A stretch of 64,000 nt of DNA, taken from the IMG/VR virus record IMGVR_UViG_3300025168_000072, positions 4,596-68,595 of that record; one strand, written 5' to 3'. Each line of letters begins with the position of its first letter. The stretch's first letter is position 1. A program made the translations under genes and the position numbers. The notes beneath the pieces are model-generated. The model was not told the DNA's origin and searched no databases. It worked only from the letters and a program-made list of their open reading frames with translations. Below are positions 8,093 through 64,000 of the stretch, piece by piece. This DNA is from a virus.

Positions 8093-8133
8093 TCGTATTA
8101 GTCGTCTATTAGTCGTATAGGCAGGTTTATATA
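8090..8133 (+). promoter_or_regulatory. TTAGTCG-box promoter
   Basis: TTAGTCG at 8098 and 8109 (plus TAGTCG at 8090), 10-bp spacer, TTTATATA at 8126-8133. Confidence 0.8.
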
Positions 8134-8168
8134 GTATGAGATGTATGTATATATGTAAGGGGAACCGA

Positions 8169-14421: not shown

Positions 14422-14456
14422 CTACCCTTATATAGAATCAAATAGGAGAGAATAAT

Positions 14457-35700: not shown

Positions 35701-36415
35701 ACTGCGCCGAAGAAGCATACTGATTCATAACATAAGTAATTTGAGACATGGTGGCGGCGGAACGGTTTTCAATGGTGTTCAACTCATCCATCAATTTGAC
35801 GCTGTTCGCTCGAACAAGATTTGCTTTTTCGTCTTCGCTCAATCGCGCTACTTGAGAAGAAGTCAATTCACCATACATGAAGTTAGTCTGTTGTTGTAAA
35901 GAGATAAGACGCTTCATAGCATCTTCTGTTCCCATACCACCAATTAGACCGAACTCAATACCTGTTTGGGTAGCGGCGGCTACACCTGCCCCACCACCAA
36001 CAATGGCCGACAACTGCGCCATACGCGCACCTGCGTTCAATGCTTGGTCGGCAGTAAAACCTGCGGCCAAACCAATTCTTTCGATAGCACCGGCAACCTC
36101 ATCTCCACCGGCAAAGTTAGCGAACTTTTCAAACTCTAATCGGGCTTCGGCAATCTCTCTCGACAAGGGAACGGTAGCGTCTATAACCGCAGTCATTTGT
36201 TCGCTAACCGCCGCCGCCGATTCTTGAATACCTGATAGACCGTCAAGCATAAGTGATTGTAAAACAGTAACCTTAGCCTCGGCATCAGCAATCAATCGCG
36301 TAGCCTGAAAGGAACCTACAACATCGAAGAAAACCTGTGATGCACCGGCACGAAGCACGACCATAGCGAGAGCCGCTACGACAAAGGGGATTATTTCAAA
36401 AATAAGTTCAAGCAA
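32768..36415 (-). CDS. Tail tape measure protein
   Basis: 1215 aa, Ala-rich and helical; TP901-like AGEEQGKAGRALRMMYARL...LAKYGIAVKDSNGQMRS; lies after the chaperone genes. Confidence 0.9.
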   Translation of the reverse strand: MLELIFEIIPFVVAALAMVVLRAGASQVFFDVVGSFQATRLIADAEAKVTVLQSLMLDGLSGIQESAAAVSEQMTAVIDATVPLSREIAEARLEFEKFANFAGGDEVAGAIERIGLAAGFTADQALNAGARMAQLSAIVGGGAGVAAATQTGIEFGLIGGMGTEDAMKRLISLQQQTNFMYGELTSSQVARLSEDEKANLVRANSVKLMDELNTIENRSAATMSQITYVMNQYASSAQLAGESTQFMAAMSATLIEAGEEQGKAGRALRMMYARLGADTSGAATELAKYGIAVKDSNGQMRSMEAILGDINNSTIIYNDAEKMRIAQAIAGNDHYVRAIKLIDNYERATELSTQAAQRLDTAQEELNRRYEDQAFQLTQVEAALNNANARLGNHFVPGVIFARKEMGLLSNAMADLGEEIGAVGSLMGLGAAINEFGKIFSPLVEANLNMMSLNVSLRTQQALTRAISGEEIVRANAYGQKNNQSAISMAMLDTELGKEDMITKQLIIQMQLREEELTIAQQLAILTSREKGNLDLIQQKHKLAQIELARQLHIRQKAIELEATGNSPARYIGKTGKANLEANEKELAKLKEITQEKRVIKALEEQGLTTEQAKARITTKAGHIHKGVLNSKKVQASLEKQEIADNDRIVKLGKAIERTEINIANQKKHTAILEGNEVKAAKAKLDISKQALGAKGQEILLSLRASSSFTQENNVQKILQQGHTQAAAALNMKTNAQQQNKVVTDAMTQTSKRLSQELGLEESHIMRLLALMPAFRNVIMGVDQANKALVSSSMQSNMSMMKLSGALGGVSMLLSMLSDNEDAAKLSAVLMTASMIPATVQMLTMAGATATLAATTEGANVATKKLTMSQKLLTKANLALLAVTAVIAAAMWASKDNYNEATDAIEDFGMAVSYTAEQYEDAQSRMAGKDAATIASNVSSLNSNILATEKELANSTDDTNKKVLQARLDLYNGEKTILLDIMNLESSRGLLKDEAAAQNMFNLGQELKAAEAASDAAKTDKGYAYVAGVRVDQTKGMLGGKWFRDNVYAMRVGQEDMVADAEANVSAVMQKIPEEYRGAVADIAKNADDFTDFLSDLEKFAEESGQDFGAIFEDAAGAMDNFIGPIEAAKEAIFEFNSEREEMFFGMSKGNLTGDMVKQVVNKGVETLINTTEVIMTNTFNGMTTTAAAREITGQVIAQLNSNGLNIKGGTNVGF

Positions 36416-48595: not shown

Positions 48596-49018
48596 TCATT
48601 CCTCTTGGGTTTGAATGGCGGCAATATTTTCTTTGTATTTTTCAACAATATGTGCGTGTTCTTGAGCCGATTTGAGCATTACTTGTTGATGCGACATAGA
48701 AGACTTTTCCATGTCAATAATATGTTGCTTTCGCATTGCATCTCGAACTCTTTCGTGTTCCATTTCAACACCCATGTTGTCAATCTCGATTGTTTGTTCG
48801 GATTCCCACATACGAAGAACTGTTCCAAGTGCCGGAACAGCCACACCACTAATAATTGCTAAAAGTGCAATGAATCCCTCAATCTCTACTAAGACAACAT
48901 CGGGCTTCATTATACCCATACCGACTATTGAACCTGCGGCAAGAAGCCATAGGTAGATTGTTGGTAATACTGTTCTCTTAACCATTCGGTCGTTAAATGT
49001 GTCGGTTTTTTTATTCAT
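48596..49018 (-). CDS. Two-TM membrane protein with coiled-coil tail (holin-like candidate)
   Basis: Two hydrophobic helices followed by a charged helix. Confidence 0.6.
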   Translation of the reverse strand: MNKKTDTFNDRMVKRTVLPTIYLWLLAAGSIVGMGIMKPDVVLVEIEGFIALLAIISGVAVPALGTVLRMWESEQTIEIDNMGVEMEHERVRDAMRKQHIIDMEKSSMSHQQVMLKSAQEHAHIVEKYKENIAAIQTQEE

Positions 49019-50391
49019 TCGGATTCCTCCTTTTTGCCTTCTTGTTGGTTTGTTCGTGGTAATTCACCAAGATTTGTTTTAGGTTGAGAGTCTTGTCGGG
49101 ATGCCCCGTCTTTTGTCGCAGGTAATCCCACGATGTCAAGTGATTCATTAAGTGTTAGTATACCTGATTGATAACCCATAACTGCTCGCTTCATCATATC
49201 CATTGGGGATTCTTCGGCAACAGGGGCAAAGTCAAAGTCCGGCAAGTCCGACATCTTATGTTCAATACCAAGTAATTCAAGGTGTTTTGAAAATAGTTTC
49301 ATAACTTCTTGTTTTACAACATACTGCAAACGACGAATCGCTGTGTTAGCCCACATATTTGCGTTGTATGTAGCGGCAAAGGTTGAACCCTTTTCTTGCC
49401 CTGCGGCTACACGGGGAACATGCAAAACTGCGGCGATATTTGCCCCGACCATATCAAGGAAAGCGGAGTTATCAGGAACGGTGTTATTGAGGTCTACATG
49501 GTGCAATTCTACATAGGATGGTAGAATAGGCATTTGGTCGCCTCGAAGCCCTTCAAAGAGTGTTATAACATCATCCATGATGGTGTTTAGGCGTTCTACT
49601 TGTTCGTCGGGGTCTTGGATGTGTTCGATAGCCGATTTGTCAATAGTAATAAATTGCTTTGTCAAAGCATCTTCAAGAGCAATACGATTATTCATACTGT
49701 TATACTTTGCTCGGATGGCTTGTTTGAGGGAGGTAAAACGGGATGCGCCCCACACACCGTATGTCTTGCGTAGTTTGATGTCGTCAAACCAATTAGAACG
49801 GTAATCTATGCGAAAGTGCATTACTTCGGCTTTAGGGAATATCATAGGGTCAAGCCCTTGTTCTCTTAGGATGTAGTAATCGTTTGACATAATCGGGTTG
49901 TTTTCGTTAGCGGTAAACGGCATACCAGAAGCACCTCTTTTGTCTACAATACTAATTTGTTTTATGGGTAAACTTTGCACATCAGTAATACCGACACCTG
50001 CTCTACCTACTAATTTGTTAATGTCATTACCGTATACCATAAGGTTACGCATAGCGTTAATCAAAAAGTCATCAAAGTCAAAAGACTCAATCATCATGTC
50101 TATTGCATTACGGATAGTGCCATTCTTTGCTTTCTTCATGTCAATGGTGTATGCGTTTGCTGTCAATGCGACTGAACGAACAGCACCGTTTAGTTCAGGG
50201 TCAAGTTTTACCATGCTATCAAACAAATCAAACTCATTGTCAAAATTAGTATCGGCTTGAAATTTGTCAGTTTCTTCAAATATGTTTGGTAAACCTGCGG
50301 CAACACTTAAAGAAACATTTGAACCTACTCTTTGAATTGGTTGTTGTTTTGCGACAACCGGCTTAGAACGGAAACGGTCAAAAATGCCCAT
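49015..50391 (-). CDS. Portal protein
   Basis: MGIFDRF, LMVYGN, EVMHFR...YGVWGAS, IAAVLHVP and GILTLNE motifs. Confidence 0.88.
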   Translation of the reverse strand: MGIFDRFRSKPVVAKQQPIQRVGSNVSLSVAAGLPNIFEETDKFQADTNFDNEFDLFDSMVKLDPELNGAVRSVALTANAYTIDMKKAKNGTIRNAIDMMIESFDFDDFLINAMRNLMVYGNDINKLVGRAGVGITDVQSLPIKQISIVDKRGASGMPFTANENNPIMSNDYYILREQGLDPMIFPKAEVMHFRIDYRSNWFDDIKLRKTYGVWGASRFTSLKQAIRAKYNSMNNRIALEDALTKQFITIDKSAIEHIQDPDEQVERLNTIMDDVITLFEGLRGDQMPILPSYVELHHVDLNNTVPDNSAFLDMVGANIAAVLHVPRVAAGQEKGSTFAATYNANMWANTAIRRLQYVVKQEVMKLFSKHLELLGIEHKMSDLPDFDFAPVAEESPMDMMKRAVMGYQSGILTLNESLDIVGLPATKDGASRQDSQPKTNLGELPRTNQQEGKKEESE

Positions 50392-50872: not shown

Positions 50873-52309
50873 ATGCGCGCTCCACCTAACTACGGACACG
50901 ACTTAATCCTTGAATTTTTTGACTCCGAAAAAAGCGTTATGGATAATGCACGAATGTTGCATGACATGGATAACAAAAAATCTGTTAAAGGTTGGGAAAT
51001 GAGTATTGTTAAAATGAAAAGTGCAGGTAAATTAGTAATTGAGCCAAAAGTAAAAGACACATCAAATACTTTTGCCGAAAAGGTTCCTGAGTCATACTTT
51101 TACGACCAAGTAAATGATGAATACTTTACATTTCTTTCGACTGCCAACACCATGATTAAAGTTGAAGGTGATAGGCATAGAGCCATGAAAACCGCGTATA
51201 GTAATATGGTTGGTAAACCGGCATCCATCAACGAAGTATGTCGAGAGTTTGGCATACCGCGAGCATGGTTTGATGAGTATAGGCGGCGACATGGATGGAC
51301 TCACGACATGGATATTTACACTGATGAACAAATCATGGAGTCAAGTGTAGAACAATTAGTTGAAGACTTAGTTCTTAAGCGACGACATCAATTACATAAA
51401 AAGTTTGAGCGTAAAAAGTGGAAAGAAATAGAAGAAGATGCCGACAAGTATCGTATGTTTGAAACAAATGTTCTTGCCGATTTTAAGAATCTCATACAAG
51501 AAAAGGCAACAAGTGTCTCTCAATTGGCATTACCTGTAAGCAACGACCCATTCTCTCTTGTTATTAGTCCGACTGACTTTCATTGGGGCAAATACGGATG
51601 GGTTGATGAAGTCGGTGAAACCTATAACTTTGACGAAGCCAAAAAACGCCTTATGGGTAAAACCCAAGAATTGATTACTCGACTTTACAGTAAACCTGAA
51701 CAAATTATTATTTCTACCGGTAGCGATTGGTTCCATGTTGATAACGATGCGGGAACTACAACAAAGGGAACACCTCAAGACATGATAGGTTCCCCTGCCG
51801 AAATACTAATGACCGGTTGTAAGTTGGCGCGTGAACACATAGATTTGCTTAGGCAGGTTGCACCGGTCAAAGTAGTGTTTATGCCGGGTAACCACGATAG
51901 AATGTCGGCTATTGCTTTGATGATGTATTTGTCGGCAGTATACGAAGACTGCGAAGACTGCGAAGTTGTTGTATCTCCTTCAACCCGACAATATGTTGAG
52001 TATGGCAATAACCTTATTGGTTTTATTCATGGCGACGGTGCTAAAAACCTTGAAGAGTTAATGTCGTGCGAACAACGCGAGTTATGGGGCAAGTGCCAAC
52101 ACCATACTTGGTTTCACGGACATTTGCATCACCGTAAGGTTTTGGAAAGCAAAGGGTGTATGATTATACAATTACCATCCTTAGCCGGACATGACCGATA
52201 CCATGCTCGACAAGGTTATACTACTTCTCAGGCCGGATTAGCCGCACACATTATTGACAAAGAAAAAGGAATTATAGGTTCTATGTTTGCCCCCGTTGGT
52301 GAGCATTGA
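50873..52309 (+). CDS. Calcineurin-like metallophosphoesterase with N-terminal HTH/coiled region
   Basis: DFHWG, GSDWFH, GNHD, HGD and GHLH motifs. Confidence 0.88.
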   Translation: MRAPPNYGHDLILEFFDSEKSVMDNARMLHDMDNKKSVKGWEMSIVKMKSAGKLVIEPKVKDTSNTFAEKVPESYFYDQVNDEYFTFLSTANTMIKVEGDRHRAMKTAYSNMVGKPASINEVCREFGIPRAWFDEYRRRHGWTHDMDIYTDEQIMESSVEQLVEDLVLKRRHQLHKKFERKKWKEIEEDADKYRMFETNVLADFKNLIQEKATSVSQLALPVSNDPFSLVISPTDFHWGKYGWVDEVGETYNFDEAKKRLMGKTQELITRLYSKPEQIIISTGSDWFHVDNDAGTTTKGTPQDMIGSPAEILMTGCKLAREHIDLLRQVAPVKVVFMPGNHDRMSAIALMMYLSAVYEDCEDCEVVVSPSTRQYVEYGNNLIGFIHGDGAKNLEELMSCEQRELWGKCQHHTWFHGHLHHRKVLESKGCMIIQLPSLAGHDRYHARQGYTTSQAGLAAHIIDKEKGIIGSMFAPVGEH

Positions 52310-52646: not shown

Positions 52647-54137
52647 ATGGCGAGTATAAAACAAGCATTAGCATTTGAAAGAGCAAGGCACGATGTTCAA
52701 TATTTTTATCGTTGGCTTGGTTATTCTTGGGGCGAACATATAGGTAAATGGATGGACTTATACACTGATAGGAAAGGTAGCCATGTTCACCGTGTATGTA
52801 TTATCGCGCCTCGTTCCCATAGTAAAAGCACAACTTTGGGTGTTAAGTTATTGCATCAATGCCTTTTTGAGAAGTATAACGGTAATCCTTTACAGGTTTG
52901 GTTATTTAGTGCAAGTCGCGATACTGCAATTCGCCGTTTGGCTGAAATTCGTAGTGATTTGACAAAGCACCCTGAATTATCTCGATACCTCGATACAAGA
53001 CGAGGTGGTAAAGTCGAGTTGTATTTTAACAACGGCGCAGTAATCCGTTGTTCTTCTGTGGGTTCCGCTATTCGTGGTGAGCATCCGGCTATTATTGCTC
53101 TTGACGATGTATTGCTTGACGCTAAAAAAGAGTTGAACAATGAACAGTTGCGCCATTGGTTGCGTAAGGTTGTTATGCCTATGCTTGACCCCGGCTCGTC
53201 AATTTACTGTGTTGGAACTCCAATGGCTATGACTGACCTTTACCACACTGAAATGTTGGATAATACCCAATGGAAAAGCGGAACATGGTCGGCATTCCCT
53301 AATTGGGATGAGCATAAACACGACCCCGACAAATTGGAGGCTCTTTGGCCGGAGTTTAGACCGGCTCAATTTTTGCTTGAACAGCGTGAGTCTATGGGTG
53401 CGTTGGAGTTTGCTCAAGAATTGCTTTGTCGAGTAATAGATGACGACTCGGCAGTATATCCCCGTAAGTATACCCGTAAAAATATGGACTTAGAACAAGT
53501 GCTTGATACAGAAAAGCGGGACAATTGCCGGTATGTTATTGGGTTTGACCCTTCGCAGGGATTAGGAAAAGACTACTCGGTGCTATGCGCTGTCCGACAA
53601 GAAAGTAATGGCGATTTAGTAGTGTCAAACATTTGGCGAAGGAACGACTTTCCCCCTGACAAACAGGCTGAAATGATTGGCGAATGGTGTAAGCGATACA
53701 GCGCACCTTTGGCGGCTGAAGATGTCGGATTTCAACGATTGTTTAAGTCGCTGTTAGAGGCTAAGGGTATCGGCGTAGATTATAGGGAAAGTAAAGTTAG
53801 CAACAAAGGTTTGAAACAGGCTTTGCTTAACAGGCTTAGGGTGTGGTTCGAGCGAGAAAAAATTGTCATCCCGTATGGCGACGACAAAACTCGACGCATT
53901 ATGAGCGAGTTGCTTGACGAATTAGAATCACACGCTTGGAAAAACGGCGAGATTGTTGATACAGGCCGACACAACGACTTGGTAATGGCATTGGCACACG
54001 CAGTAGACCAATTTTCAGGCGGAATGAAAGGTGCGAAAATGGTCTTTGGCAAATCGGGCAAAGGTGAATGGGCCGGTGGTAAGGCTAAAGCAAGAGCGCG
54101 TGGCAATCTTAAGGTCGTTAATCGACGCAGGTATTGA
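52647..54137 (+). CDS. terL: Terminase large subunit
   Basis: APRSHSKST (Walker A), IRGEHP..IALDD (Walker B), VGTP, GFDPS...DYS and HNDLVMALA (RNase H-like nuclease). Confidence 0.95.
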   Translation: MASIKQALAFERARHDVQYFYRWLGYSWGEHIGKWMDLYTDRKGSHVHRVCIIAPRSHSKSTTLGVKLLHQCLFEKYNGNPLQVWLFSASRDTAIRRLAEIRSDLTKHPELSRYLDTRRGGKVELYFNNGAVIRCSSVGSAIRGEHPAIIALDDVLLDAKKELNNEQLRHWLRKVVMPMLDPGSSIYCVGTPMAMTDLYHTEMLDNTQWKSGTWSAFPNWDEHKHDPDKLEALWPEFRPAQFLLEQRESMGALEFAQELLCRVIDDDSAVYPRKYTRKNMDLEQVLDTEKRDNCRYVIGFDPSQGLGKDYSVLCAVRQESNGDLVVSNIWRRNDFPPDKQAEMIGEWCKRYSAPLAAEDVGFQRLFKSLLEAKGIGVDYRESKVSNKGLKQALLNRLRVWFEREKIVIPYGDDKTRRIMSELLDELESHAWKNGEIVDTGRHNDLVMALAHAVDQFSGGMKGAKMVFGKSGKGEWAGGKAKARARGNLKVVNRRRY

Positions 54138-54530
54138 TACTTGTTTTTCATAATTTTTTGTAGTAAATTTTGCGGGAGGCTAAGCAATGGTAAATGTGCC
54201 TCTTTTTTTTACTTTTGGAGTAAAAAAAGAAAAAACCCCCCAAAACCCCCCCTAAATGGGCCTGAAATTTTCCGATGGTATCAATTGACCTATTGATACC
54301 TTGAAGGCTCACAGAGGCGTTTATATTGCTGTTTTTAGGGGTGTTTCGAGTTTGTCTATGTCGGCACTTTACAATTGACATGAAAAAGGCACCCGTCGGT
54401 TCATGTTTTGGATAAGTCAAATACGGGTGAACATTTGACTTTCTATCCTTTGTTTTCGATTCTTAGCACCTCGTTTTGGTATTGATTACAATAATTTAAT
54501 TCGATAAACAGGCTTTCAGTCAAGCGTTTT

Positions 54531-55814
54531 TCAGTCGTCTTCAGGTATCAAGTTCGGGTTGATTCTTTCACAGGCCAAGCCGAAAGTTACACCGTTGTAT
54601 GCAACATCGAAGCACACAGGCACGACTTTGGCGGGGACTTTGATGGAGTCGTTCCGTCGAATCATAACACCGTTTGAGCGAAGTGCTTTGATGGCTTCTT
54701 TCGCTGTATACACACCCATTTGGTAGCCAATAATTAAGCGAGCCGTTGCGACCGGTATCATGCAAGAGCGCATGTGGATTTGATGCCCGCCGTATGTCTT
54801 GAGTTCACCATCACTTTGAATTTGAGGCATTGAAATGGCATTCGCATGGCCCGAAAGTCTGTATTTTGGCATTGAGCATACAGTGCATGAGTTTGGCGAA
54901 TCGCCTCCCTTCTTTACTTGTCCGTTGCCCATCAAGTTGCCACATCCACCGTTCTTCTTAGAACATGACCATGACTTAGCGGAGACGGTCAAATCGCTCA
55001 AGGTGTCGGCATTGATTGAGAGGTGTGCATATCCAAGCACTTCATTGTCGGCGTTCTTCGTTGGGCCGTATGTATGAACCTTGATGCCATGCTGATAAAT
55101 TGAAGTGATAGGGTCATAGTGTCCCTCTTGTTCACTCAATCGCATTGAGGTGAAACCTTGACGGATTAACTCCGACGGGTTCAATTCAATGTATCGGACA
55201 AAGTCGTGAGCATCCATCAATTCAAACGCTTCAAGAGCGCGGTGTGAAGTGATGTCTTCAAGGGCGAGTGTATCACCAATTGTCGAAGCAACGGCACCCA
55301 TGTTTTCAATACCTGCTTTCTTCAAGCGAAGCAATTTATCGAAAGCCATGATACCCATAACAGCATCGCGAGCCTTCTTTGATGAATCAAGCACTTGCTT
55401 GAATCCGGTTCCGTTGGCATTCATTGAAACGCGTTCTTGATTTCGTCCGATGTATTCAACCACAGCAAGGCCGGCGTTCACCATTGCTTCGCTGTTGATG
55501 TCCTTTCGTCGAATGTTCGCAGTTCGGGCGTAAAGCATAGCGTCCTTGCACATTGGCGTCCCTTTGTATGCAAAGGTTTCGCGTTGCTTCTTGTTCAAGG
55601 TCTTTCGTGCCTTGGCGTCATTGACGGTCAAGGTTATTCGCTTGAACACTTCGTGGCGTAGCACATCCCCGAATCGCTTAAGCACCTCGTCGGAAAGGTC
55701 TATCATTGTCTCGTTTGAGGTTGCTTCAACAGCAACGACAACCGGTATTTTTTCGGTTTGTTCAATATCAACGACATTGAACACACCGTTTTTGGTATGG
55801 GTTTTTTCCTCCAT
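54531..55814 (-). CDS. Hypothetical protein with Zn ribbon, 427 aa
   Basis: GGAGG-preceded ATG (MEEKTH); CSKKNGGCG...CTVC. Confidence 0.75.
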   Translation of the reverse strand: MEEKTHTKNGVFNVVDIEQTEKIPVVVAVEATSNETMIDLSDEVLKRFGDVLRHEVFKRITLTVNDAKARKTLNKKQRETFAYKGTPMCKDAMLYARTANIRRKDINSEAMVNAGLAVVEYIGRNQERVSMNANGTGFKQVLDSSKKARDAVMGIMAFDKLLRLKKAGIENMGAVASTIGDTLALEDITSHRALEAFELMDAHDFVRYIELNPSELIRQGFTSMRLSEQEGHYDPITSIYQHGIKVHTYGPTKNADNEVLGYAHLSINADTLSDLTVSAKSWSCSKKNGGCGNLMGNGQVKKGGDSPNSCTVCSMPKYRLSGHANAISMPQIQSDGELKTYGGHQIHMRSCMIPVATARLIIGYQMGVYTAKEAIKALRSNGVMIRRNDSIKVPAKVVPVCFDVAYNGVTFGLACERINPNLIPEDD

Positions 55815-56105
55815 GTGTCTACGGTATCTATAACGCATATATCAACCGACCGACTAAAAAGGGCGTTTTTGGCGTTTTTAGGTTTGTTTTGGCCGGTTCC
55901 GTTGCGAATTTTCAGGTGTGGGTTGATGTGCGTTTTTTGGCTAATTTAGGGGGTTTTCTAAATCATGTTTCATGTTTGACCTGATTTTTAGGGCTAAACG
56001 CATGACTGCGAGGCATAACATGATTGAACATGATTCAACATGAATGATTCATGTTCGTATTTTTGGATTTTTTGAAATCGGTCGGCGCGCGGACCGGATT
56101 TTTTG

Positions 56106-56140
56106 AAACTTAGTGTATTTTCTACACTAAGTTTTTTTTT
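56106..56140. terminator. Perfect 12-bp hairpin followed by poly-T
   Basis: AAACTTAGTGTA-ttttc-TACACTAAGTTT then a T-run. Confidence 0.55.
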
Positions 56141-56426
56141 CACACTATCATAAATTAGTCGCGACTAATAAATCAAAACCCTGAAAAAAATTAGTCGTTA
56201 AAAAAGATTAGTCGAAAAAAAATTAGTCGATAAAAAAAGACCCAGAAAATTAGTCGCTAATAAATTAGTCGATAAAAAAATTAGTCGTAAATAAAATCAC
56301 CAAAAAAAAAAGCAAATAAATTAGTCGAAACCCAGAATTAGTCGTAATTTGGTTCCCGACCCCTCCGAAGGGGGGTCAGGAACGGCCTCGACATTAGTCG
56401 TATACTGTAAACGATTTTAGTCGTAT

Positions 56427-56846
56427 TCAAACGCTCTTGTAATTAAGAACTGCGTAGTCTTCAAAATATTCAGGGTGTGTTTTGCACATGCCCCATTCAG
56501 TAGCGTAAATTTTGAGCCTGTAAAGGTATTCAATGTCGCCGTGAATTGAGCAGGTGGGTTCATACGCACCACATTTCCAACCGTCGCTGATAGCACCCTT
56601 TAGAGTGCGTTTATTGCTGTATTCATAATGACCGGCTACAATTATCCAACCTGCGACCTGTGAGGGATTACTTCTCAAGTTGCCTTTGTTGATGCCTTGA
56701 AGGATAGGGTCAAGGGATGGGAGGACACTTGAAGGGTAGCCATCACAATGACGGTAGAAAATGAGGTCTTGACCCTCATCATGTAGCCACTCGCCAAACT
56801 GCGACCTTTCGATGTATTGAACAACGACGTTACAACGAGTAGACAT
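56427..56846 (-). CDS. Hypothetical phage early-type protein
   Basis: MSTRCNV...FYRHCDGYPS...GDIEYLY; GAGGTGG RBS. Confidence 0.75.
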   Translation of the reverse strand: MSTRCNVVVQYIERSQFGEWLHDEGQDLIFYRHCDGYPSSVLPSLDPILQGINKGNLRSNPSQVAGWIIVAGHYEYSNKRTLKGAISDGWKCGAYEPTCSIHGDIEYLYRLKIYATEWGMCKTHPEYFEDYAVLNYKSV

Positions 56847-57208
56847 CAAGCCACCTCTTGAACTGCGGAATAGTTGCACTTGAGGCACTCTCCCACAAGG
56901 TCGCCGTCGCCAAGTCTGTAAGCGCGTTGAGGATGGTGGCCGCAATTGAGTTTCGTCATTTCAGGGATGAGGAAATTGCACCACATCTTGTCTTCATCGC
57001 CTGTCGGTAGTGCTTCGGTATCAAGGGCTTCATACGCATCCTTGAGTGTTTGCATAATCTTCTCAAGTTCTTCATATCCTCTAATGGCTTCGGGGTAATC
57101 CCAAGTCATATAGTCATATACATCACAAATTGCTACCTCAAGGCATTGTCGGGTAACGGTGGATTCATCCACAATAGGGCCGTCTTCGGGGGTATGGTCG
57201 TTTGCCAT
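56846..57208 (-). CDS. Hypothetical protein with C-terminal Zn ribbon
   Basis: MANDHT start after a TTAGTCG promoter; CGH...CLKC. Confidence 0.7.
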   Translation of the reverse strand: MANDHTPEDGPIVDESTVTRQCLEVAICDVYDYMTWDYPEAIRGYEELEKIMQTLKDAYEALDTEALPTGDEDKMWCNFLIPEMTKLNCGHHPQRAYRLGDGDLVGECLKCNYSAVQEVA

Positions 57209-57230
57209 GTGTAATCCTATGTTGAACAGG

Positions 57231-57307
57231 TATATCAACACGGCTGAACGACTAATGAACGACTAATGCGATACGACTAATGAACGACTAATGCAAGGAA
57301 CGACTAA
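57231..57307 (-). promoter_or_regulatory. TTAGTCG-box promoter (five boxes)
   Basis: CGACTAA at 57249, 57260, 57274, 57285 and 57301; 10-bp spacer to TTGATATA. Confidence 0.75.
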
Positions 57308-57532
57308 TGCAAGCAACCCACTATTAGTCGCGACTAAGTTATCGCACCTGATTTTTTATTAGTCGGGGTTATTAGTCGTAAGTGTTTAGACCAAAAAAAA
57401 AATTAGTCGTAAAGAGATTAGTCGCTCTTAGTCGCTAAAAAAATTAGTCGTTAAAAAAGGCTTCACTTTCCGGCGAACCGGAAAGCAAAGCGGCATCGAC
57501 TTTTAGTCGTATACTGTAATTATTTTAGTTAA

Positions 57533-57748
57533 TTACTCTTCAACCAGAAACCAAGTTTTTTCCATTGTAATGTATTCTTGGTCGGTCGGGATGTTAATTC
57601 CGATGGCATCAACGGATAGGGTTTCGGTGTATTCAAACCATTTTGTTCCGCCGTTGCTTTTGTATTCTCCGCATGGGTATAAGTAGCCCAATTGCCGGAA
57701 CTCCGGCAAGGGGGTATCGTGCGTGTATATCATTATATCAGTGTTCAT
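57533..57748 (-). CDS. Hypothetical protein
   Basis: AGGAG RBS; has its own promoter and hairpin terminator. Confidence 0.7.
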   Translation of the reverse strand: MNTDIMIYTHDTPLPEFRQLGYLYPCGEYKSNGGTKWFEYTETLSVDAIGINIPTDQEYITMEKTWFLVEE

Positions 57749-57786
57749 TTTATGTCTCCTGTTCAATCTATCCTACGGGCCACACC

Positions 57787-57823
57787 TATTTATACCTACC
57801 GCTTCGACTAATATGACGACTAA
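57787..57823 (-). promoter_or_regulatory. TTAGTCG-box promoter
   Basis: Two boxes, 10-bp spacer, TATAAATA. Confidence 0.8.
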
Positions 57824-58823
57824 TATGGCCTGAGCGTTATTTTCTTAATCGCGACTAGTTTTTCTTTTTTTTAGTCGTTATTGTTATTTTTTACGACTAA
57901 TAGGCCATTAGTCGCGACTAATTTTATACCCTTTCAGTGTGCTTATTAGTCGCAATTCTCAGGCGTCGGCATTTATGGTGGGTTCGGAGGGGGATAACTT
58001 TTTTTTACGACTAAGAAGGGTATATCGTGCTGTTATTTTAGTCGCGCTTAATGCTAATATTAGTCGCGACTAAAATTACATTGAGCAGTAAGCGTATTAG
58101 TCGCAAAAAAACTTCATAGACACTTAGGAGGGGGTAATTGGAAAAGAGAAAAAAATTACGACTAAGAAGGAGACTGCGAACCTGATTATTAGTCGCGTTT
58201 AATATTAGTCGCGACTAAAAACATGGATTGTAATACGCATATTAGTCGCAATTTTATAGCGTCATTGTTTGCACCCCACCTAAGTGTCGAGGCCGCGTTT
58301 TTACGACTAATACGATGACTGCGAGCATGGTTATTAGTCGCGACTAATGGCGTTTTAGTCGCAAATAAATTAGTCGGTTGAAAAAAAATGCGCCAAAAAT
58401 TAGTCGGTGCAGAAAAATCACCAAAAAATTAGTCTCGACTAATGACAGGCCAAGTTTTTTTAGAAAAATCAGGTATAAAAAAATAGTCGCGATTAAGAAA
58501 CCTTTAAAAATTATTGAATAAAAAAATCCACGCCGAACTTTAGTCGCGTCTAATTATTGACTACAAATTATAAAAATTAGTCGTCTTTCCAACACCCGAC
58601 TAAAAAACGCGAAACCATTTCCTTTATTTAGTCGCGATTAACTTTCGCTTCGCCGGAATCAGGATTGGCCGCATTAGTCGCAAAACATTAGTCGCTCGAC
58701 TAATAATCGAAACCGAAAAATAACATTAGTCGCAAATCGCCCCGATTTCAAAAATAACATTAGTCGTCTTTTTCAGGTGTTTTTTCCGTAATAATATGAA
58801 CGCACATACGCTCGCGAGGGGCA

Positions 58824-58871
58824 TTAGTCGCCGTATTAGTCGCTCATTAGTCGTATCGGTAGTTTTATATA
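58824..58871 (+). promoter_or_regulatory. TTAGTCG-box promoter
   Basis: Boxes at 58824, 58836 and 58847; 10-bp spacer; TTTATATA. Confidence 0.8.
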
Positions 58872-58905
58872 GTAGTATGCACATGGGTAATTAGAGGCGA
58901 AGCAG

Positions 58906-59067
58906 ATGACCCTAAAAACCGAAACCCGACCAAAGACCGACCATATCACCTTGAAAGGTGTGCGCTGTAAAAAGTGTGGCTGTAAAAAGTTCACATCAAT
59001 AGGCGTATCAAACGAAAATGCCCGTTGCATTCACTGTGGCACATTCACATTCCTATGGGGTGCTTGA
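58906..59067 (+). CDS. Zn-ribbon microprotein, 53 aa
   Basis: CKKCGC...CIHCG. Confidence 0.6.
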   Translation: MTLKTETRPKTDHITLKGVRCKKCGCKKFTSIGVSNENARCIHCGTFTFLWGA

Positions 59068-59069
59068 AT

Positions 59070-59300
59070 ATGAAGACGACCGAATATTTCAAACCCATTT
59101 CAGTTATCACCACAAAGTTTCCTTTGAAAAAATATCATGTTATTTTTGTAGTCTCGCACACGGACACACACACACGCATAGCACACCTTGACACTATCAA
59201 CGGCATTTACAAAACATCTCGCACCATCACACAAGCGCAATTCAAAAACGGCTACCGACCACTCAATAAATCCGAGGTGCTTCAATTTGTCGAAGAATGA
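59070..59300 (+). CDS. Hypothetical protein
   Basis: Coupled ORF starting MKTTEYF. Confidence 0.55.
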   Translation: MKTTEYFKPISVITTKFPLKKYHVIFVVSHTDTHTRIAHLDTINGIYKTSRTITQAQFKNGYRPLNKSEVLQFVEE

Positions 59301-60804
59301 TATTTCAGTAGACTTCTCATGCACACACGCGCAATGGCCGCGTGTGCAAAAATCGCTTGAGAGATTTTCAAAGAAGTGTGCCTCGCGAGACATCCCGTTC
59401 AAATACGAATTTCAGGATTCGCCCCCACCCACCTATCGCGCCTTTGTCAAATGCAACCGAAAATACGGTTCCGTTTTCGATGAGCAATTTCAGGATATGA
59501 CCGGCGCGAAATGGCGTTTCAATCCGAAAGTGAACCGGCGTCTCTATCGACTCAAATCTCCCGACATCGAAAAAATATGGCGTAACCTCGACCACATCGG
59601 AAAATTGCACACACCTCCCGAAGTTTTCAAAGAGTCAAAATTTGTCGGATATTCTACCGTTCAAATCAAGGCCCAATACACACCCCCTTCAAAGTGGCGC
59701 GTCATAACCGTGTGCGACCCTGCCGACCCCAATAATCCTCAAGACACGCCCGCGATATACACGCCCATGTTTGGCGAAAAAATACCCGAACGCGTAGGCC
59801 GTAAAAAATTGCCCCACAAATATACCGACCAATGCGACCATTGCACTTCAGGGAAACGGCGTAGAAAACAGGTCTACATTGTCGAATCACCCAAAGGTCA
59901 AAAACGATATGTCGGTAAAACATGCCTCAAATCATACACGGGTCTTGACCCTAAAGACCTTGAGGATTTACTTTGCTACGCTAAAGCATCACCCGAAGAA
60001 CCCACCTCACATGGCGGCCGCGTGTCCGAGACTACCTTTGAAACCTCGCTCATGAACATGCTCATAGGTGCGTATGCGACCCAAAAAATGCCTTACAAAT
60101 CCGGTCTTGGCCGTTCTCTCTTGTTCTCCTTTGTAAAATATTTACCCGATGAAAACCTTTTAGAATTAGGTCGATGGGACACGGATTTACGGGGTCGAAG
60201 GACTTGGGAACCCCAATTCAAAATAGCAAACATATTCGATTTACGGCGACCCGATGACCTGCCGAGTGATTGGCAAATGCACATGCTCCTTCAAAATATG
60301 TCTTGGCGACCGTCGGCCAAAATTATGATGCTCGCGTCCGACTTTGCTCAAGCCGTCGAAGACATGAAAAACGACCGGCCAAGTGATTTTACCCGAAAAG
60401 TATTATCGGTGGCTGAATGCGGAGTGGTTCAACGAAAAACATGGAATGTCTATGCGGGCGCGTCCTCGCGATGGCTCAAGAAAATACATGAGCAATGGTT
60501 CAACGAAAAGTCCGACATCAAACCCGAACAAAAAACGGTTGCCCACACGGGCGAAGTCGGTGAAAGAATCACCGTTAAAGTATTCTATCACTCGCAACGC
60601 GAAACCAAAAACGGCTACACCATAACCGAGTTCCGCACCAAAAAGAATGAGGCGTTTGTAACCTTTGGCACAGCCGACATTAGCCAAATCAAGACCGGTG
60701 ATAAATTGCTCTTGACCGGAACTATCAAGCGACACGGTGCTTTCAACGGCAACGGCTCGACCACACTCAACCGAATCCAAATGACCGGAGGTTGGAAAGC
60801 GTGA
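59287..60804 (+). CDS. Zn-finger plus C-terminal OB-fold nucleic-acid-binding protein
   Basis: TTG start after GAGGTG; CDHC..RRRK..YIV...YVGKTCL; GEVGERITVKV...TGTIKRH..T.LNR OB-like tail. Confidence 0.7.
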   Translation: MSKNDISVDFSCTHAQWPRVQKSLERFSKKCASRDIPFKYEFQDSPPPTYRAFVKCNRKYGSVFDEQFQDMTGAKWRFNPKVNRRLYRLKSPDIEKIWRNLDHIGKLHTPPEVFKESKFVGYSTVQIKAQYTPPSKWRVITVCDPADPNNPQDTPAIYTPMFGEKIPERVGRKKLPHKYTDQCDHCTSGKRRRKQVYIVESPKGQKRYVGKTCLKSYTGLDPKDLEDLLCYAKASPEEPTSHGGRVSETTFETSLMNMLIGAYATQKMPYKSGLGRSLLFSFVKYLPDENLLELGRWDTDLRGRRTWEPQFKIANIFDLRRPDDLPSDWQMHMLLQNMSWRPSAKIMMLASDFAQAVEDMKNDRPSDFTRKVLSVAECGVVQRKTWNVYAGASSRWLKKIHEQWFNEKSDIKPEQKTVAHTGEVGERITVKVFYHSQRETKNGYTITEFRTKKNEAFVTFGTADISQIKTGDKLLLTGTIKRHGAFNGNGSTTLNRIQMTGGWKA

Positions 60805-60849
60805 ACGCGTTCACAGCCGATGTCTCTCAGGAAAAAAGAGAGCGTCATA

Positions 60850-60886
60850 TTAGTCGCCATATTAGTCGTATGCGAAGGTTTAAATA
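60850..60886 (+). promoter_or_regulatory. TTAGTCG-box promoter
   Basis: Boxes at 60850 and 60862; 10-bp spacer; TTTAAATA. Confidence 0.8.
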
Positions 60887-60928
60887 CTTGATAAGAGTAT
60901 GGTTAAATAACCGACAGGAGAGGAAACA

Positions 60929-61102
60929 ATGAATGAACAAAAACAATTAGATGATGATGTGTATTGGATGCTTACGAATGGCTATACAAACGAGCGTTGT
61001 AAAAAATGCGGTGTTTCAATATGGTTATCGAATTGCGAATCACGGTTTGATGAAAGCGTCGAAAAAATAGTTATCACTTGTAAAACCGAGGTGAAACAAT
61101 GA
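60929..61102 (+). CDS. Small hypothetical protein, 57 aa
   Basis: GGAGAGG RBS; CKKCG. Confidence 0.55.
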   Translation: MNEQKQLDDDVYWMLTNGYTNERCKKCGVSIWLSNCESRFDESVEKIVITCKTEVKQ

Positions 61103-61792: not shown

Positions 61793-62186
61793 TGATTCTC
61801 ACGGCATGGTTAATTCAAATCGCGATTCGATATAATAGGTGGCGGTTTCAATGAGTTATCGAAGAATTAGATTATTCGACGGTGCTTGGGGCTACTGTAA
61901 ATTTTGCGGAAACAAGGCATACCACACAAACCATAAATCCGAAACATACGCTTTGTGTGCCGATGCTTGTGGTTATATTCGACACTATGGCGACATTAGG
62001 TATAACGATAAAAACATTATCAAAATTGAGGTGAGTCCTGATGAATGATGAATGTAAATTCCCAAACAAAAAACGCTTTAGAACGCGTGAGGATGCCGAT
62101 TTGGAGGCGTGGTTCATTGGTAAAGGTTTCAATGTCTACCGTTGCCGTTGTGGTGGCTACCACTTTACTTCAAGGGGGATTGACCG

Positions 62187-62719: not shown

Positions 62720-62755
62720 TTAGTCGCTCATTAGTCGAACCGGCAGGTTTAAATA
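62720..62755 (+). promoter_or_regulatory. TTAGTCG-box promoter
   Basis: Boxes at 62720 and 62731; 10-bp spacer; TTTAAATA. Confidence 0.8.
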
Positions 62756-62964
62756 CTTGAAGGGGTATGGTTAAATGAAGCGGGAGAGAACCGCCGACAA
62801 ACAAAATACAAGGAGGAAAATAAAATGAAAAATATACCGAAAAAAGCAAAACAGACAACAGACATACCGAAGAAAGACCTTAACGCTTGGGGCCACCCCG
62901 ATGCAAAGAAATGGGCTTTCGTCGGCTACACAAAGAAAGACGAAACCGCATGGTGGGTGAAGAA

Positions 62965-63366
62965 ATGAAAGTCATAATCCCTGAAGCGGAAACTGAAGGC
63001 ACATTTGAGGGGTGGGTTCGCGTTGAAACCAAAAACGCCATATCCATTTACCGTAAAATGTTGCTTAGACAAAGAAGAGAGAACGAAGCCCGAACACCAC
63101 AATACCCGTATTCATTGGGTAGTCATATGAAAGCATCTATGCTTCTTCACTTGACACCGGAACAGCGTTCATCTCAATGGATTAGACTGCCTTTAGGTAA
63201 AGCCGAAAAAATTATGGAATTGCATTGCGAGGTAATAAAATACAGAAATTGTGTGATGAAACCTTTCTTTTACATGCAAACTCACCGGCACAGCATTTCA
63301 GTATGGCCTCAACATGAGCGCGATGAAACTCTCAACAGGGACAATAATTGGGGTGAAGAAGAATGA
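62965..63366 (+). CDS. Hypothetical protein
   Basis: Start MKVIIPE, coupled to a 47-aa ORF at 62825-62968. Confidence 0.6.
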   Translation: MKVIIPEAETEGTFEGWVRVETKNAISIYRKMLLRQRRENEARTPQYPYSLGSHMKASMLLHLTPEQRSSQWIRLPLGKAEKIMELHCEVIKYRNCVMKPFFYMQTHRHSISVWPQHERDETLNRDNNWGEEE

Positions 63367-63875
63367 AAAACCCAAGCCCGATACAAAAAATGCTAATCTA
63401 CGACCAACCACGCGTGTATGTGGCCTGTTTAGGTTGCTATAACGAAGGCCGACTGAATGGTAAATGGATGGATGCCGACGAGTATGAAGACTATACTCAT
63501 AAGTGCAAACGCCCATATCATGAAGAATACGCCATACATGACTATGACACGATGCCGAACTTAGACGAATATCCCGACCCTGAAAAAGTCGTTGATGTCG
63601 CCCACGCCGTCATGGAGCATGGTTATGATATTGTCAATGACTTCATAAATTGGGGTATGGATGATGTCTCAAAAATATCCGACGCATTCTTAACCGAATT
63701 AAGCGGATGGAATTACAACAAACAATTAGGGGAATACTTAGTGCATGAATTAGACATGATGAATATACCCGATGAAATGTCCTATTACTTCGATTATGAG
63801 GCGTATGGTCGCGATATGTCGGTGAACTGCGTCTATGTCTCGGACAAGGGCAATGTATTTTGGAGGGATTTTTGA
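63363..63875 (+). CDS. ardA: ArdA antirestriction protein (DNA mimic)
   Basis: VYVACLGCYNEGRLNGKW, EEYAIHDYD and YYFDYEAYGRD motifs; highly acidic. Confidence 0.9.
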   Translation: MKNPSPIQKMLIYDQPRVYVACLGCYNEGRLNGKWMDADEYEDYTHKCKRPYHEEYAIHDYDTMPNLDEYPDPEKVVDVAHAVMEHGYDIVNDFINWGMDDVSKISDAFLTELSGWNYNKQLGEYLVHELDMMNIPDEMSYYFDYEAYGRDMSVNCVYVSDKGNVFWRDF

Positions 63876-64000
63876 TGACTCGAATGGTTGGAATATGCGG
63901 CTACTGCTCATTTGTTCAAGGTTATTGCGTGGAAAATATGCTATTGATAGCAGACCATCCGAGCCTTTCACACGACTTTTGTAAATCGTGTAAATCACAC

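Follow-up and report, generated by a model that had tools for sequence, protein, structure and literature searches.

A heptamer-box array in the early region of an uncultured marine siphophage as a possible binding-site cluster for a promoter factor

In this study, a 2.7-kb array of the heptamer TTAGTCG (the box) was characterized in the complete ~68-kb genome of an uncultured marine siphophage. The terminase module stands on one side of this array and the early genes on the other. With about even confidence, it is read as a cluster of binding sites for a promoter factor, probably phage-encoded, in an early region that shuffles cassettes. Positions are those of the window, the whole 64,000-nucleotide stretch that was analysed.

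The box occurred 71 times on the two strands of the window, against 7.22 ± 2.74 expected, and 0 of 100 shuffles reached 71. Sixty-two of the 71 copies fell within 56155–58853 (42 on the plus strand and 20 on the minus strand), consistent with the roughly 60 copies reported in an earlier note on this DNA. By segment, there were 62 exact copies in 56101–58900 and 8 in the remaining 60,800 bases. Away from the array and the promoters, the genome of this phage (G000) had 2 boxes (6708 and 41207) versus ~7 expected per 64 kb. Within the array, 62 boxes were exact and only 9 were one-mismatch variants; the constant core of the repeat was only 7–8 bp. The 14-bp palindrome TTAGTCGCGACTAA was found exactly at the six places expected from the note (56155, 57324, 57908, 58060, 58205, and 58334), with a chance expectation of 0.00. 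A CRISPR array consists of direct repeats of ~23–47 bp with unique spacers of similar length. The array, with its 7-bp core, both orientations, and spacings of 7–64 bp, was rightly described as not CRISPR-like.

The assembly was checked by comparing Logan contigs from four other runs with 55000–59500. Contigs of X2 spanned 55573–58106 and 58147–58905, and those of X3 spanned 56053–57401, 57394–57801, and 57782–58556, in both cases with 0 other letters and 0 gaps. The array was also present in related IMG/VR records from other data sets. An assembly artefact, a concern raised in the note, was thus ruled out. Among the 24 runs listed for the stretch, none was an RNA run.

The array had been taken for a single continuous non-coding block. 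The span instead holds three small leftward genes (56430–56846, 56849–57208, and 57536–57748), and the features of the region are as follows.

54534–55838, minus strand: gene X, 435 aa, leftward, between terminase and array (ORF)
55851–55857, minus strand: outlying box just upstream of gene X (motif search)
55950–56060, plus strand: conserved non-coding element with CATGTTT/AACATGA half-sites, the 19-bp palindrome AACATGAATGATTCATGTT, and CTAAACGCATGACTGCGAGGC (sequence)
56078–56135, plus strand: two tandem terminator-like hairpins directly before palindrome 1 (terminator scan)
56155–56168, no strand: palindrome 1, TTAGTCGCGACTAA (motif search)
56184–56344, plus strand: sub-array A, 8 orphan plus-strand boxes (56191–56338) with A tracts at 15–17 bp or more
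56351–56425, minus strand: G+C-rich hairpin (56351–56383), then module CGACATTAGTCGTATACTGTAA with boxes 56394 and 56417
56430–57208, minus strand: leftward cassette 1, genes of 139 aa (56430–56846) and 120 aa (56849–57208) (ORFs)
57230–57307, minus strand: leftward promoter, five minus-strand boxes (57249–57301), core TTGATATA at 57231–57238 of the plus strand
57324–57337, no strand: palindrome 2 (motif search)
57359–57450, plus strand: sub-array B, 6 orphan plus-strand boxes with A tracts
57460–57491, minus strand: intrinsic terminator of the leftward 71-aa gene (14 pairs, then CTTTTTT)
57499–57530, plus strand: module CGACTTTTAGTCGTATACTGTAA, second copy, box 57503 (sequence)
57536–57748, minus strand: leftward cassette 2, one 71-aa gene (ORF)
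57780–57823, minus strand: leftward promoter, tandem boxes 57805 and 57817, core TATAAATA at 57787–57794 of the plus strand
57887–58348, no strand: strict-geometry unit block, periods 151 and 145 bp
58355–58766, plus strand: sub-array C, orphan boxes, mostly plus-strand, and one-mismatch copies of the palindrome at 58429, 58540, and 58628
58824–58871, plus strand: rightward main early promoter, tandem boxes 58824, 58836, and 58847, core TTATATA at 58865–58871
58906–59064, plus strand: first early gene, 53-aa zinc-ribbon protein

The core of the leftward promoter at 57230–57307 stood 18 nt from the box start, and that at 57780–57823 stood 17 nt from it. At the outlying box 55851, the distance to TTGATATA was 12 nt, not 18, as read from the sequence. 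The segment 56351–56425 forms the 3' end of leftward cassette 1; its hairpin was not flagged by the terminator scan because it has no T run. The motif ACTGCGAGGC was exact at 56005, and elements of the non-coding element 55950–56060 were found near 52000–52140 of G001. A family-conserved motif, ATTATTGACTACAAA, lay at 58553–58567 inside sub-array C. The alternation of boxes with A/T tracts described earlier was observed in three sub-arrays (for example, a period of 15–16 with 7.5 copies at 56184–56297) and not elsewhere in the array.

Gene X matched no family in PHROG, Pfam, or NCBIfam, and an Atlas search gave no usable lead. Its tblastn identity was 24–32% in G001, G006, and G007, and BLASTP found no similarity to the gene at the same position in L146. 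Judged from these comparisons, gene X is fast-evolving in sequence and retained in position.

The relation of the box to promoters was investigated genome-wide. In G000, 8 of 74 boxes were followed by a TTATATA-type core at 17–18 nt, counted from the start of the box, and each of the 8 preceded an early, middle, or cassette gene. The core pattern, which was derived from those promoters themselves, has a background rate of 0.002 per position. The box-core distance was constant within each relative genome: 20–21 nt in 6 of 53 boxes of G001, 20 nt in 5 of 63 of G002, 19 nt in 6 of 63 of G003 and 6 of 64 of G004, and 19 nt in 2 of 37 in the available part of G005. In G006 and G007, the box was ~29–30 nt upstream of the core, one helical turn further out, and G000 has boxes at both upstream positions. 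No box-plus-core pair was found in the structural/late-gene arm. Since a TTATATA-type core follows the box at a set spacing, TTAGTCG is predicted to be the upstream specificity element of the family's own early and middle promoters, with the core assumed to act as the "−10" element. Promoters of the sigma-70 type numbered 7 in the window against 8.7 expected, so there was no excess.

Of the 62 boxes in the array, just 3 are parts of promoters, and the rest (~59) are orphans without a core. The leftward promoter (57805/57817) and the rightward early promoter (58824–58847) flank the unit block, confirming that it lies between divergent promoters. This position supports the general idea of a nucleoprotein platform; the note's interpretation as a whole was partly supported. 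Among the roles proposed for such a platform, sites of a promoter activator were favoured most by the data because the box keeps a set spacing to the core at 8 promoters; the sink part of that proposal is one that we infer.

On the preferred reading, the 2.7-kb region would be the family's early control region, with three promoters (two leftward and one rightward) and ~59 orphan boxes. The orphans take three forms: pairs set head to head, which make up the 14-bp palindromes; runs in one direction within A-rich DNA; and units of ~148 bp whose geometry is fixed. We infer that a protein binds the boxes and activates transcription, with the orphans as a hub or sink. One sequence-specific DNA-binding factor would read all boxes; a phage gene probably encodes it, since the box changes from lineage to lineage under a constant core and architecture. 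The orphan cluster may concentrate, buffer, or titrate this factor around the early promoters and separate the small leftward cassettes. Repeated decoy sites are described as sharpening the dose response of an activator (PMC3322331). The repeated modules (palindrome, box run, terminator, and promoter) may double as recombination substrates, so that cassettes would be gained and lost. Against this reading, a phage-encoded factor would leave the firing of the first early promoter without an account. Nor does the reading account for the near-uniform plus orientation of the orphans or for the A-rich strand, which may simply stem from array growth by tandem duplication.

The gene of the factor was sought among the ORFs. 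The 95 ORFs scanned against PHROGs and the 88 against Pfam gave no match to MotA or AsiA, and none to any sigma factor or RNA polymerase. The best candidate was a 135-aa protein (7685–8089) with a putative winged helix and zinc ribbon, which had sub-threshold Pfam matches only and a poor structure model (mean pLDDT 59). It had 22 homologous loci; the 21 that were translated were 65–86% identical with an invariant putative recognition helix, and none came from a lineage whose box sequence is distant. The early genes begin with the 53-aa zinc ribbon in three lineages (TTAGTCG, TTAGACG, and TTAGCCG), where it is near-identical, and it is absent from the others. In the ATAGTCG and GGTTACA lineages, the first early gene did not point to a factor either. 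A gene beside TerL encodes a 478-aa nuclease-like protein, a helix-turn-helix fused to a metallophosphatase nuclease. Its helix-turn-helix showed no difference between the TTAGTCG, TTAGACG, and TTAGCCG lineages, and among such close lineages it did not co-vary with the box. A 2332-aa protein was considered as a virion RNA polymerase and rejected; it lacks a DxDxD motif, matches no family in Pfam or PHROG, and looks tail-like.

The conservation of the array was investigated at 37 terminase-anchored loci with at least 3 kb downstream of TerL. A 7-mer with at least 12 copies was held by 35 of the 37 loci, compared with 3 of 49 upstream control stretches (maximum 13), and comparable arrays, which had been proposed as a test, are thus found in relatives. 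The arrays had 26–75 or more copies over 2.5 to 6 kb. The box differed by lineage: TTAGTCG, ATAGTCG, TTAGACG, TTAGCCG, GGTTACAAAAAC, and TACAAATTTGTA. Close lineages differed at box position 1 or 5 only (TTAG[T/A/C]CG and ATAGTCG), and L112 mixed two box variants; variation among close lineages may be tolerated drift and not changed specificity. A switch by methylation of the CG core, suggested in the note, cannot be a general property because sister lineages of the same architecture have the boxes GGTTACAAAAAC and TACAAATTTGTA without CG. The C5-methylase of this phage had no tblastn match in relatives G001 and G010.

In alignments, the boxes intact were 47 of 56 in L006 versus 13.8% of control 7-mers, 42 of 59 in L011 versus 27%, and 58 of 62 in L013 versus 59%. 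The boxes are shown by these alignments to be kept while the spacers drift. The family itself is, as far as the collections searched can tell, a widespread and uncultured one of marine siphophages, without a cultured relative in the phage collection. Positions 54000–61000 had no blastn match there, and tblastn with TerL gave 123 records, all below 60% identity (22–26% among the matches listed). No relative turned up when bacterial and archaeal genomes were scanned with a TerL profile.

The turnover of the cassettes was also investigated. The cassette genes (139, 120, and 71 aa) had no family in PHROGs, Pfam, or NCBIfam and no tblastn match in G001–G005. The 139-aa gene was absent from the close relative L013, and a gene-sized indel distinguishes L013 from this phage. 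The number of modules ranged from 2 to at least 7 among the phages compared. The array region had 67–82% nucleotide identity where the TerL protein was 92–99% identical, diverging faster than its flanks. Genome comparison thus shows cassette turnover in the early region. The variable module number, the unrelated cassette genes of different lineages, and the fast divergence would also suit orphan boxes without a collective function, as debris or duplicates of promoter modules left by recombination and slippage in a PeSL-like manner. The same-direction runs likewise fit growth by tandem duplication. However, neutral debris should decay, and the boxes stay exact while the spacers drift. Copies numbering 26–75 or more persist in 35 of 37 loci, including lineages with a changed box, and the unit geometry is conserved to within 1 bp. 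Debris is considered very unlikely.

The strong plus polarity of the orphans and the A-rich strand could also be explained by a plus-strand RNA with ~40 UUAGUCG repeats that sequesters an RNA-binding protein, as the RNA CsrB does. Such an RNA would run antisense to three genes, and the terminator and promoter scans found no promoter or terminator framing it. Palindromes and a fixed spacing to promoters belong to DNA rather than to a transcript. The Rfam scan gave no family match and nothing near the gathering score in the window, where no tRNA was found either. This explanation is hardly credible.

The geometry of the unit block was then considered. Higher-order units recurred at 151 and 145 bp (families D10 and D11), as the note had proposed, and not at 115 bp. 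The block has minus-strand boxes at 57894, 58008, 58159, and 58304, palindromes at 57908, 58060, 58205, and 58334, plus-strand boxes at 57946, 58097, and 58242, and ACTGCGA at 58173 and 58318. It comprises 3–4 tandem ~148-bp units with dyad symmetry. The spacing pattern (minus-30-plus, plus-37-plus, and plus-62/63-minus) was conserved to within 1 bp, and the spacings of 30, 37, and 62–63 bp approximate whole or half helical turns. They were maintained across the TTAGTCG, ATAGTCG, and TTAGACG lineages. A lineage-invariant motif, ACTGCGAG, has a fixed place in each unit. The spacing of boxes in direct runs, by contrast, was irregular and lineage-specific (10 to 64 bp). A simple sink would not need the strict unit geometry and ACTGCGAG, which look more like marks of an origin or packaging site; the units may possibly be one.

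A tentative reading joins both aspects. The array may be a built-in titration device of 60 to 100 exact decoys for a lineage-specific phage factor beside the early promoters, with box and reader co-evolving. Genome copies, and with them decoys, would determine how much of the factor is free, and thereby when and how sharply the early programme runs. The ~148-bp units with ACTGCGAG would then have a second, coupled function, for instance as an origin or packaging entry site that the same factor loads.

The array, or at least the ~148-bp unit block, may instead be a replication origin. An initiator would then use the direct boxes as iterons and the palindromes for binding as a dimer, with melting at the A/T-rich tracts. 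The promoters on either side might contribute through their transcription, as at the origins of T7 and T4. Direct and inverted copies of one short site adjoin A-rich DNA, and the tandem units combine dyad symmetry, maintained spacings, and an invariant ACTGCGAG. The P4 ori/crr likewise has an 8-bp site in both orientations and 120-bp repeat units. Unlike iterons, however, the box takes fixed promoter positions in 8 operons, and the direct-run spacing varies as above. No initiator gene was recognised next to the array with PHROGs, Pfam, or NCBIfam, and the replication genes were more than 10 kb distant. GC skew in the window followed gene orientation only, and DnaA boxes (TTWTNCACA) were not enriched (6 versus 8.4 expected). 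An origin is considered unlikely.

In every relative examined, the array was at the junction of the terminase/late arm and the early arm; in this phage it starts 2 kb downstream of TerL, and no TerS was recognised in the genome. This position would suit a region for packaging or for the genome ends, such as pac, cos, or an injection signal, at which a terminase-associated protein would occupy the boxes and the cut would fall at or near ACTGCGAG. Lineage-specific boxes with a family-invariant motif resemble a specificity site beside a cut site. Parallels are lambda cosB/cosN and the SPP1 and P1 pac sites. The TerL-adjacent nuclease-like gene and the many contigs of relatives that end within the array point the same way. 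The injection-stop region of T5 is likewise described as a conserved kb-scale block of repeats and palindromes by variable ORFs (10.1101/866236). Against this, the box is tied to promoters genome-wide, the helix-turn-helix of the nuclease-like protein is identical in three lineages with different boxes, and the ~125-nt overlap that makes the contig circular lies inside a gene distant from the array. The repeats of the array can account for contig breaks there. Word depth over the array was 3.4–5.6 in X2 and 3.5–5.1 in X3, no higher than in the flanks, so there was no sign of a terminal repeat, at a low depth and with contigs that cannot show ends. A packaging role is quite unlikely.

The preferred reading, a binding-site cluster for a promoter factor, has several implications. 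The box, a ACCGGCAG-like spacer, and the TTATATA core would define a new phage-specific promoter class, on whose specificity motif the family spends 2.5 to 6 kb in tens of exact copies. The motif varies by lineage under a constant architecture and therefore offers a natural series for the co-evolution of DNA-binding specificity and site. The boxes are an immediate handle for DNA pull-down of the factor and should make the early and middle operons of these viromes easier to annotate. Should the orphans act as decoys, the array would be a natural example of a virus that times its programme by decoys.

Iteron replicons (P1 incC/incA, F, R6K, and P4 ori/crr) carry direct and inverted copies of one site, and extra site clusters at iteron control loci titrate or handcuff the binding protein. 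The array resembles them in its many direct and inverted copies of one site. It differs in its ~60 copies, in sites that form part of 8 promoters, and in a 7–8-bp core with irregular plus-plus spacings where an iteron origin has at least 3 regular direct repeats of ~17–22 bp. A tracts lie between the boxes, with a GC of 0.38 in 58001–59000 that is equally low in other parts of the genome. No cognate initiator gene was recognised by PHROGs, Pfam, or NCBIfam, where many ORFs had no family. In T5, the injection-stop region has 8 host DnaA boxes within a long terminal repeat, compared with ~60 phage-specific boxes here. Two of the six TTWTNCACA sites of the window were in or beside the region, unpaired, unlike the boxes of T5, which are paired in inverted repeats, and no terminal repeat was detected at the low word depth of the contigs.

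The omega heptads of pSM19035, operators that double as parS, are also 7-bp sites in direct and inverted orientation upstream of promoters, and the head-to-head pairs of the array are contiguous like them. A functional parS is reported to require at least four contiguous gapless heptads (PMC9499535). Here, contiguity was found only in pairs (plus then minus at spacing 7, six times), with the other boxes 10–64 bp apart, and the PHROG/Pfam scan of the ORFs found no ParA or ribbon-helix-helix gene. The stoperators of mycobacteriophage L5 bind the repressor and are dispersed through the genome. The array shares with them tens of short asymmetric sites, with an orientation bias, for what would be one phage regulator, whereas its sites are clustered and tied to promoter activation geometry.

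No kb-scale clustering of orphan boxes is known from T4. At T4 middle promoters, the MotA box is given as 12 ± 1 bp from the −10 element and centred at −30 (PMC2988021). In the printed sequences of the 8 promoters of G000, the gap from box end to TATATA or TAAATA was 12 bp. The box is thus like MotA a phage motif 12 bp from an A/T-rich hexamer of assumed −10 type, in place of a −35 element. Unlike in T4, the box position shifts by lineage (18–21 or ~29–30 nt), and no MotA or AsiA homologue was detected in the ORF scans. In a hyperplastic region of T4-type phages, PeSL cassettes are described as small variable ORFs, each set between an early promoter and a stem-loop, with the repeated frames mediating shuffling (PMC2839356 and PMC4122927). 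The frames of the present phage differ in their long runs of orphan boxes and palindromes, and the sequences and the phage family are unrelated. The small variable ORFs here also come with promoters and a terminator or hairpins, with unshared genes and an indel relative to L013, and the likeness to PeSL is in the way the region works, not in sequence membership.

The heptamer TTAGTCG (the box) occurred 71 times in the window, compared with 7.2 ± 2.7 expected, and 71 copies were reached in 0 of 100 shuffles. The region 56155–58853 (the array) held 62 of the 71 copies, 42 on the plus strand and 20 on the minus strand, and A preceded the box in 48 of the 62. Exact 14-bp palindromes, each a head-to-head box pair, were located at 56155, 57324, 57908, 58060, 58205, and 58334 (chance expectation 0.00); three more places matched with one mismatch. 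Only 9 one-mismatch box variants were found inside the array, versus 62 exact copies. Repeat families of 48 nt and 21 nt returned at 151 and 145 bp. A tracts and boxes alternated with a period of 15–16 in 56184–56297 and in two shorter runs. The array described by the earlier note was thus confirmed, with 62 exact boxes, six exact palindromes, and 151/145-bp units. That note had named an assembly artefact as one thing that would refute it. Contigs from other public sequencing runs, X2 (55573–58106 and 58147–58905) and X3 (three pieces spanning 56053–58556), were identical to the array sequence without any difference; therefore, the array is not an artefact of one assembly.

The virus record has 68,595 bp, of which the window is bases 4596–68595. 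Its final ~125 nt (window 63875–64000) recur near its start (genome 6–131), within an ORF. This end repeat is an assembly overlap, and therefore the map is circular and the genome complete; the record itself is classed as linear. PHROGs and Pfam matches, including a tail tube protein, a family B DNA polymerase, a clamp loader, three DNA methylases, and ArdA-like and Lar-like proteins amid many small early ORFs, indicated that the genome is of siphovirus type. Three further matches were as follows.

32771–36415, minus strand: tape measure protein
49018–50391, minus strand: portal protein
52647–54134, plus strand: large terminase (TerL)

No tRNAs or Rfam families were found in the window. A GroEL-type chaperonin (12850–14418; phrog_5725, E 2e-90) was kept in relatives at 39–47% identity. 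An anti-restriction kit (157–1167, 5168–5815, 16918–18069, 61839–62045, and 63363–63872) contained a C5-cytosine methylase, an N6/N4 methylase, a third methylase-like protein, a weak Lar-like match, and an ArdA-like protein; the C5 methylase had no match in the relatives G001 and G010.

The array lies exactly at the junction of the late/terminase arm with the rightward early arm. Its parts, from left to right, were as follows.

56078–56135, plus strand: two terminators
Palindrome 1, then eight plus boxes within A-rich DNA
Hairpin and a module containing TTAGTCGTATACTGTAA
Leftward: two genes, of 139 and 120 aa
Five minus boxes: promoter of the 139- and 120-aa genes
Palindrome 2, then six plus boxes
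57460–57491, leftward: clear terminator, then a second copy of the module with TTAGTCGTATACTGTAA
Leftward: 71-aa gene, its promoter with two minus boxes
57887–58348: block of ~148-bp units with four palindromes
Another box run, mostly plus
58824–58847, rightward: early promoter with three boxes
58906: start of the first early gene

By our own classification, the 20 minus boxes comprised 6 palindrome halves, 7 in the two leftward promoters, 4 unit boxes, and 3 others (58436, 58597, and 58697). Left of the array, a conserved non-coding element (55950–56060) carried a second repeat system of TCATGTTT/AACATGA half-sites and the 19-bp palindrome AACATGAATGATTCATGTT, adjoining CTAAACGCATGACTGCGAGGC; these elements were also present in G001, near 52000–52140. 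The element probably holds sites for a second DNA-binding protein. Within the array's right part, ATTATTGACTACAAA (58553–58567) was conserved between the TTAGTCG and TTAGACG lineages, and G003, G004, and L112 carried two copies; it was similar to the boxes amplified in other lineages (GGTTACAAAAAC and CTACAAATTT).

Outside the array, boxes of this genome occurred almost only as ATTAGTCG-N3/4-ATTAGTCG, followed by an (A/T)ACCGGCAG-like sequence and then TTATATA or TTAAATA (the core). These sites were upstream of early and middle operons.

8098/8109, 60850/60862, and 62720/62731 (window coordinates): promoter boxes
1380/1391 and 3863 (genome coordinates): promoter boxes

Two boxes lay outside both the array and the promoters, versus ~7 expected, and no box-plus-core pair was found in the late arm. 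The core was found at 8 of 74 boxes (background rate of the pattern 0.002), a count that is partly circular as the pattern was derived from the same promoters. Every time, it was 17 or 18 nt from the box start; this constant distance is not circular, because the scan admitted 17–22 nt. The box is accordingly taken as a promoter element. Five relatives followed a one-box rule with a genome-specific distance to the core: 20–21 nt in G001, 20 nt in G002, and 19 nt in G003, G004, and G005. The GGTTACA lineage had the box 18 nt before TTATATA at two promoters. The box of G006 (ATAGTCG) and that of G007 (TTAGACG) stood ~29–30 nt upstream of the core, where the tandem pair here has its distal box, one helical turn further out. 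The variable box position favours an activator bound to one helix face over sigma region 4 reading the box directly. Twelve bp separated the proximal box from TATATA. T4 middle promoters have the same geometry: according to PMC2988021, their MotA box is centred at −30, with 12 ± 1 bp between it and the −10 element.

A leader ~22 nt downstream of the core was conserved at 8130–8165, 58872–58900, 60880–60915, 62750–62790, and genome 1410–1440. Its form was TATGG/TTA(T/A)AT(A/G), then (G/A)AGCGG(G/A)AG...CCGACAA, and G001 and G003 shared it. This leader may be a further −10-like element or a 5′ UTR signal.

The distribution of arrays was investigated by TerL-anchored scans of IMG/VR, covering 9 loci and then the best 80 of 194 relatives. 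A 7-mer with at least 12 copies in the 7 kb after TerL was found in 35 of the 37 loci reaching at least 3 kb beyond TerL, several of which are near-identical, so the 35 are not independent cases; upstream control stretches had such a 7-mer in only 3 of 49 cases (maximum 13 copies). Analogous arrays in relatives, for which the earlier note had called, therefore exist. The exceptions were L166, with a different gene order, and L163, which reaches only 3 kb. A separate scan for the palindrome yielded 47 contigs, of which 22 had 3–19 boxes per kb and the remainder ≤1.5. The box differed by lineage.

TTAGTCG: lineages with TerL 75–99% identical
ATAGTCG(CG): L129–132, L137, G006
TTAGACG and TTAGCC mixed: L110–112, G007
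TTAGCCG: L115
GGTTACAAAAAC: L144, L146, L147, L158–160, G008 (up to 98 copies in G008)
CTACAAATTT with TACAAATTTGTA palindromes: L142, L155

Compared with L006, 47 of 56 aligned boxes were intact, versus 13.8% of control 7-mers, a count somewhat biased toward boxes by alignment anchoring; spacers drifted. G001 was syntenic along the genome at 64–83% nucleotide identity, with an architecture identical in kind and place, and blastn aligned almost none of the array region. Since sister arrays without CG exist, the CpG methylation switch suggested earlier is not a general feature.

Because the box differs by lineage while the core stays the same, we think that the box reader is phage-encoded. The first promoter might then fire through basal activity with positive feedback, or through an injected protein. 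Among the ORFs scanned against PHROGs and Pfam, none matched an RNA polymerase, a sigma factor, MotA, or AsiA; the 2332-aa protein was tail-like. A 135-aa protein (7685–8089) is a candidate reader. A helix-helix-helix segment at its N-terminus drew winged-helix hits below threshold (E 0.0026–0.23), and its C-terminus has a CxxC...CxxC motif (zinc ribbon). It was 65–86% identical across 22 related loci, with a box promoter always directly after its gene. The putative recognition helix was invariant in 21 of 21 translated homologues from the 22 loci, and the structural model was poor (mean pLDDT 59).

Two other proteins were considered as readers; neither the 53-aa zinc ribbon nor the helix-turn-helix of a 478-aa nuclease-like protein co-varied with the box among the close lineages. 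In the TTAGTCG, TTAGACG, and TTAGCCG lineages, the zinc-ribbon protein (58906–59064; 50–53 aa; KGVxCxKCGC...CxHCGTFT.LWGA) is the product of the first gene behind the main early promoter. The 478-aa protein (50873–52306), which precedes the large terminase, has an N-terminal helix-turn-helix (ASINEVCREFGIPRAWFDEYRRRHGW) fused to a metallophosphatase (Mre11/SbcD-like) nuclease domain and is kept family-wide at 50–74% identity. No separate small terminase was recognised.

Each unit of the block had the layout CGACTAA-N7-ACTGCGAG-...-palindrome-...-GCAGT-N7-TTAGTCG, and its 62-bp spacer contained a G-rich tract. Start-to-start spacings were common to the TTAGTCG, ATAGTCG, and TTAGACG lineages: 30 bp from minus to plus, 37 bp from plus to plus, and 62–63 bp from plus to minus. 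Direct-run spacing was lineage-specific (15–17 bp here, 28 in G001, 14 and 20 in G003–G005). The motif ACTGCGAG(G/C)C was retained despite a changed box in L155, L141, L153, and G006. At ≤1 mismatch it occurred 11 times in the window, versus 3.4 expected.

56005, 58173, 58318, 2480 (minus strand), and 40796: ACTGCGAG(G/C)C sites

Elsewhere in the genomes it was often located in the loop of an A/T-stemmed intergenic hairpin, for example at genome 7084 (minus strand) and at G006 41588 and 60065. The strict spacings and invariant motif match the titration sink of the earlier note poorly, and keep two of its other readings alive. It is unlikely, on our estimate, that the block is an origin, and a packaging or end function seems slightly less probable still.

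The three leftward genes had no family in family searches and no tblastn match in G001–G005, and the 139-aa gene was missing from L013, whose TerL is 99% identical. G002 (L088) carried at least seven palindrome-headed modules in 13734–17001, each with a leftward promoter. Their start codons were ~30 nt after the core without a Shine-Dalgarno sequence, and AGCCCTAC or GCAGCCGAG was conserved after the core. Judged from the unshared, family-less genes, the gene absent from L013, and the G002 modules, the region's behaviour is like that of the hyperplastic regions framed by PeSLs in T4-type phages, as described in PMC2839356 and PMC4122927.

The leading reading, at about even odds, takes the array to be a homotypic site cluster for the family's promoter factor that serves as control hub in an early region of shuffling cassettes. 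The array belongs with a known kind, the clustered protein-binding repeats of phage control regions, among which it is unusual in scale, exactness, tie to promoter identity, and lineage-specific boxes.
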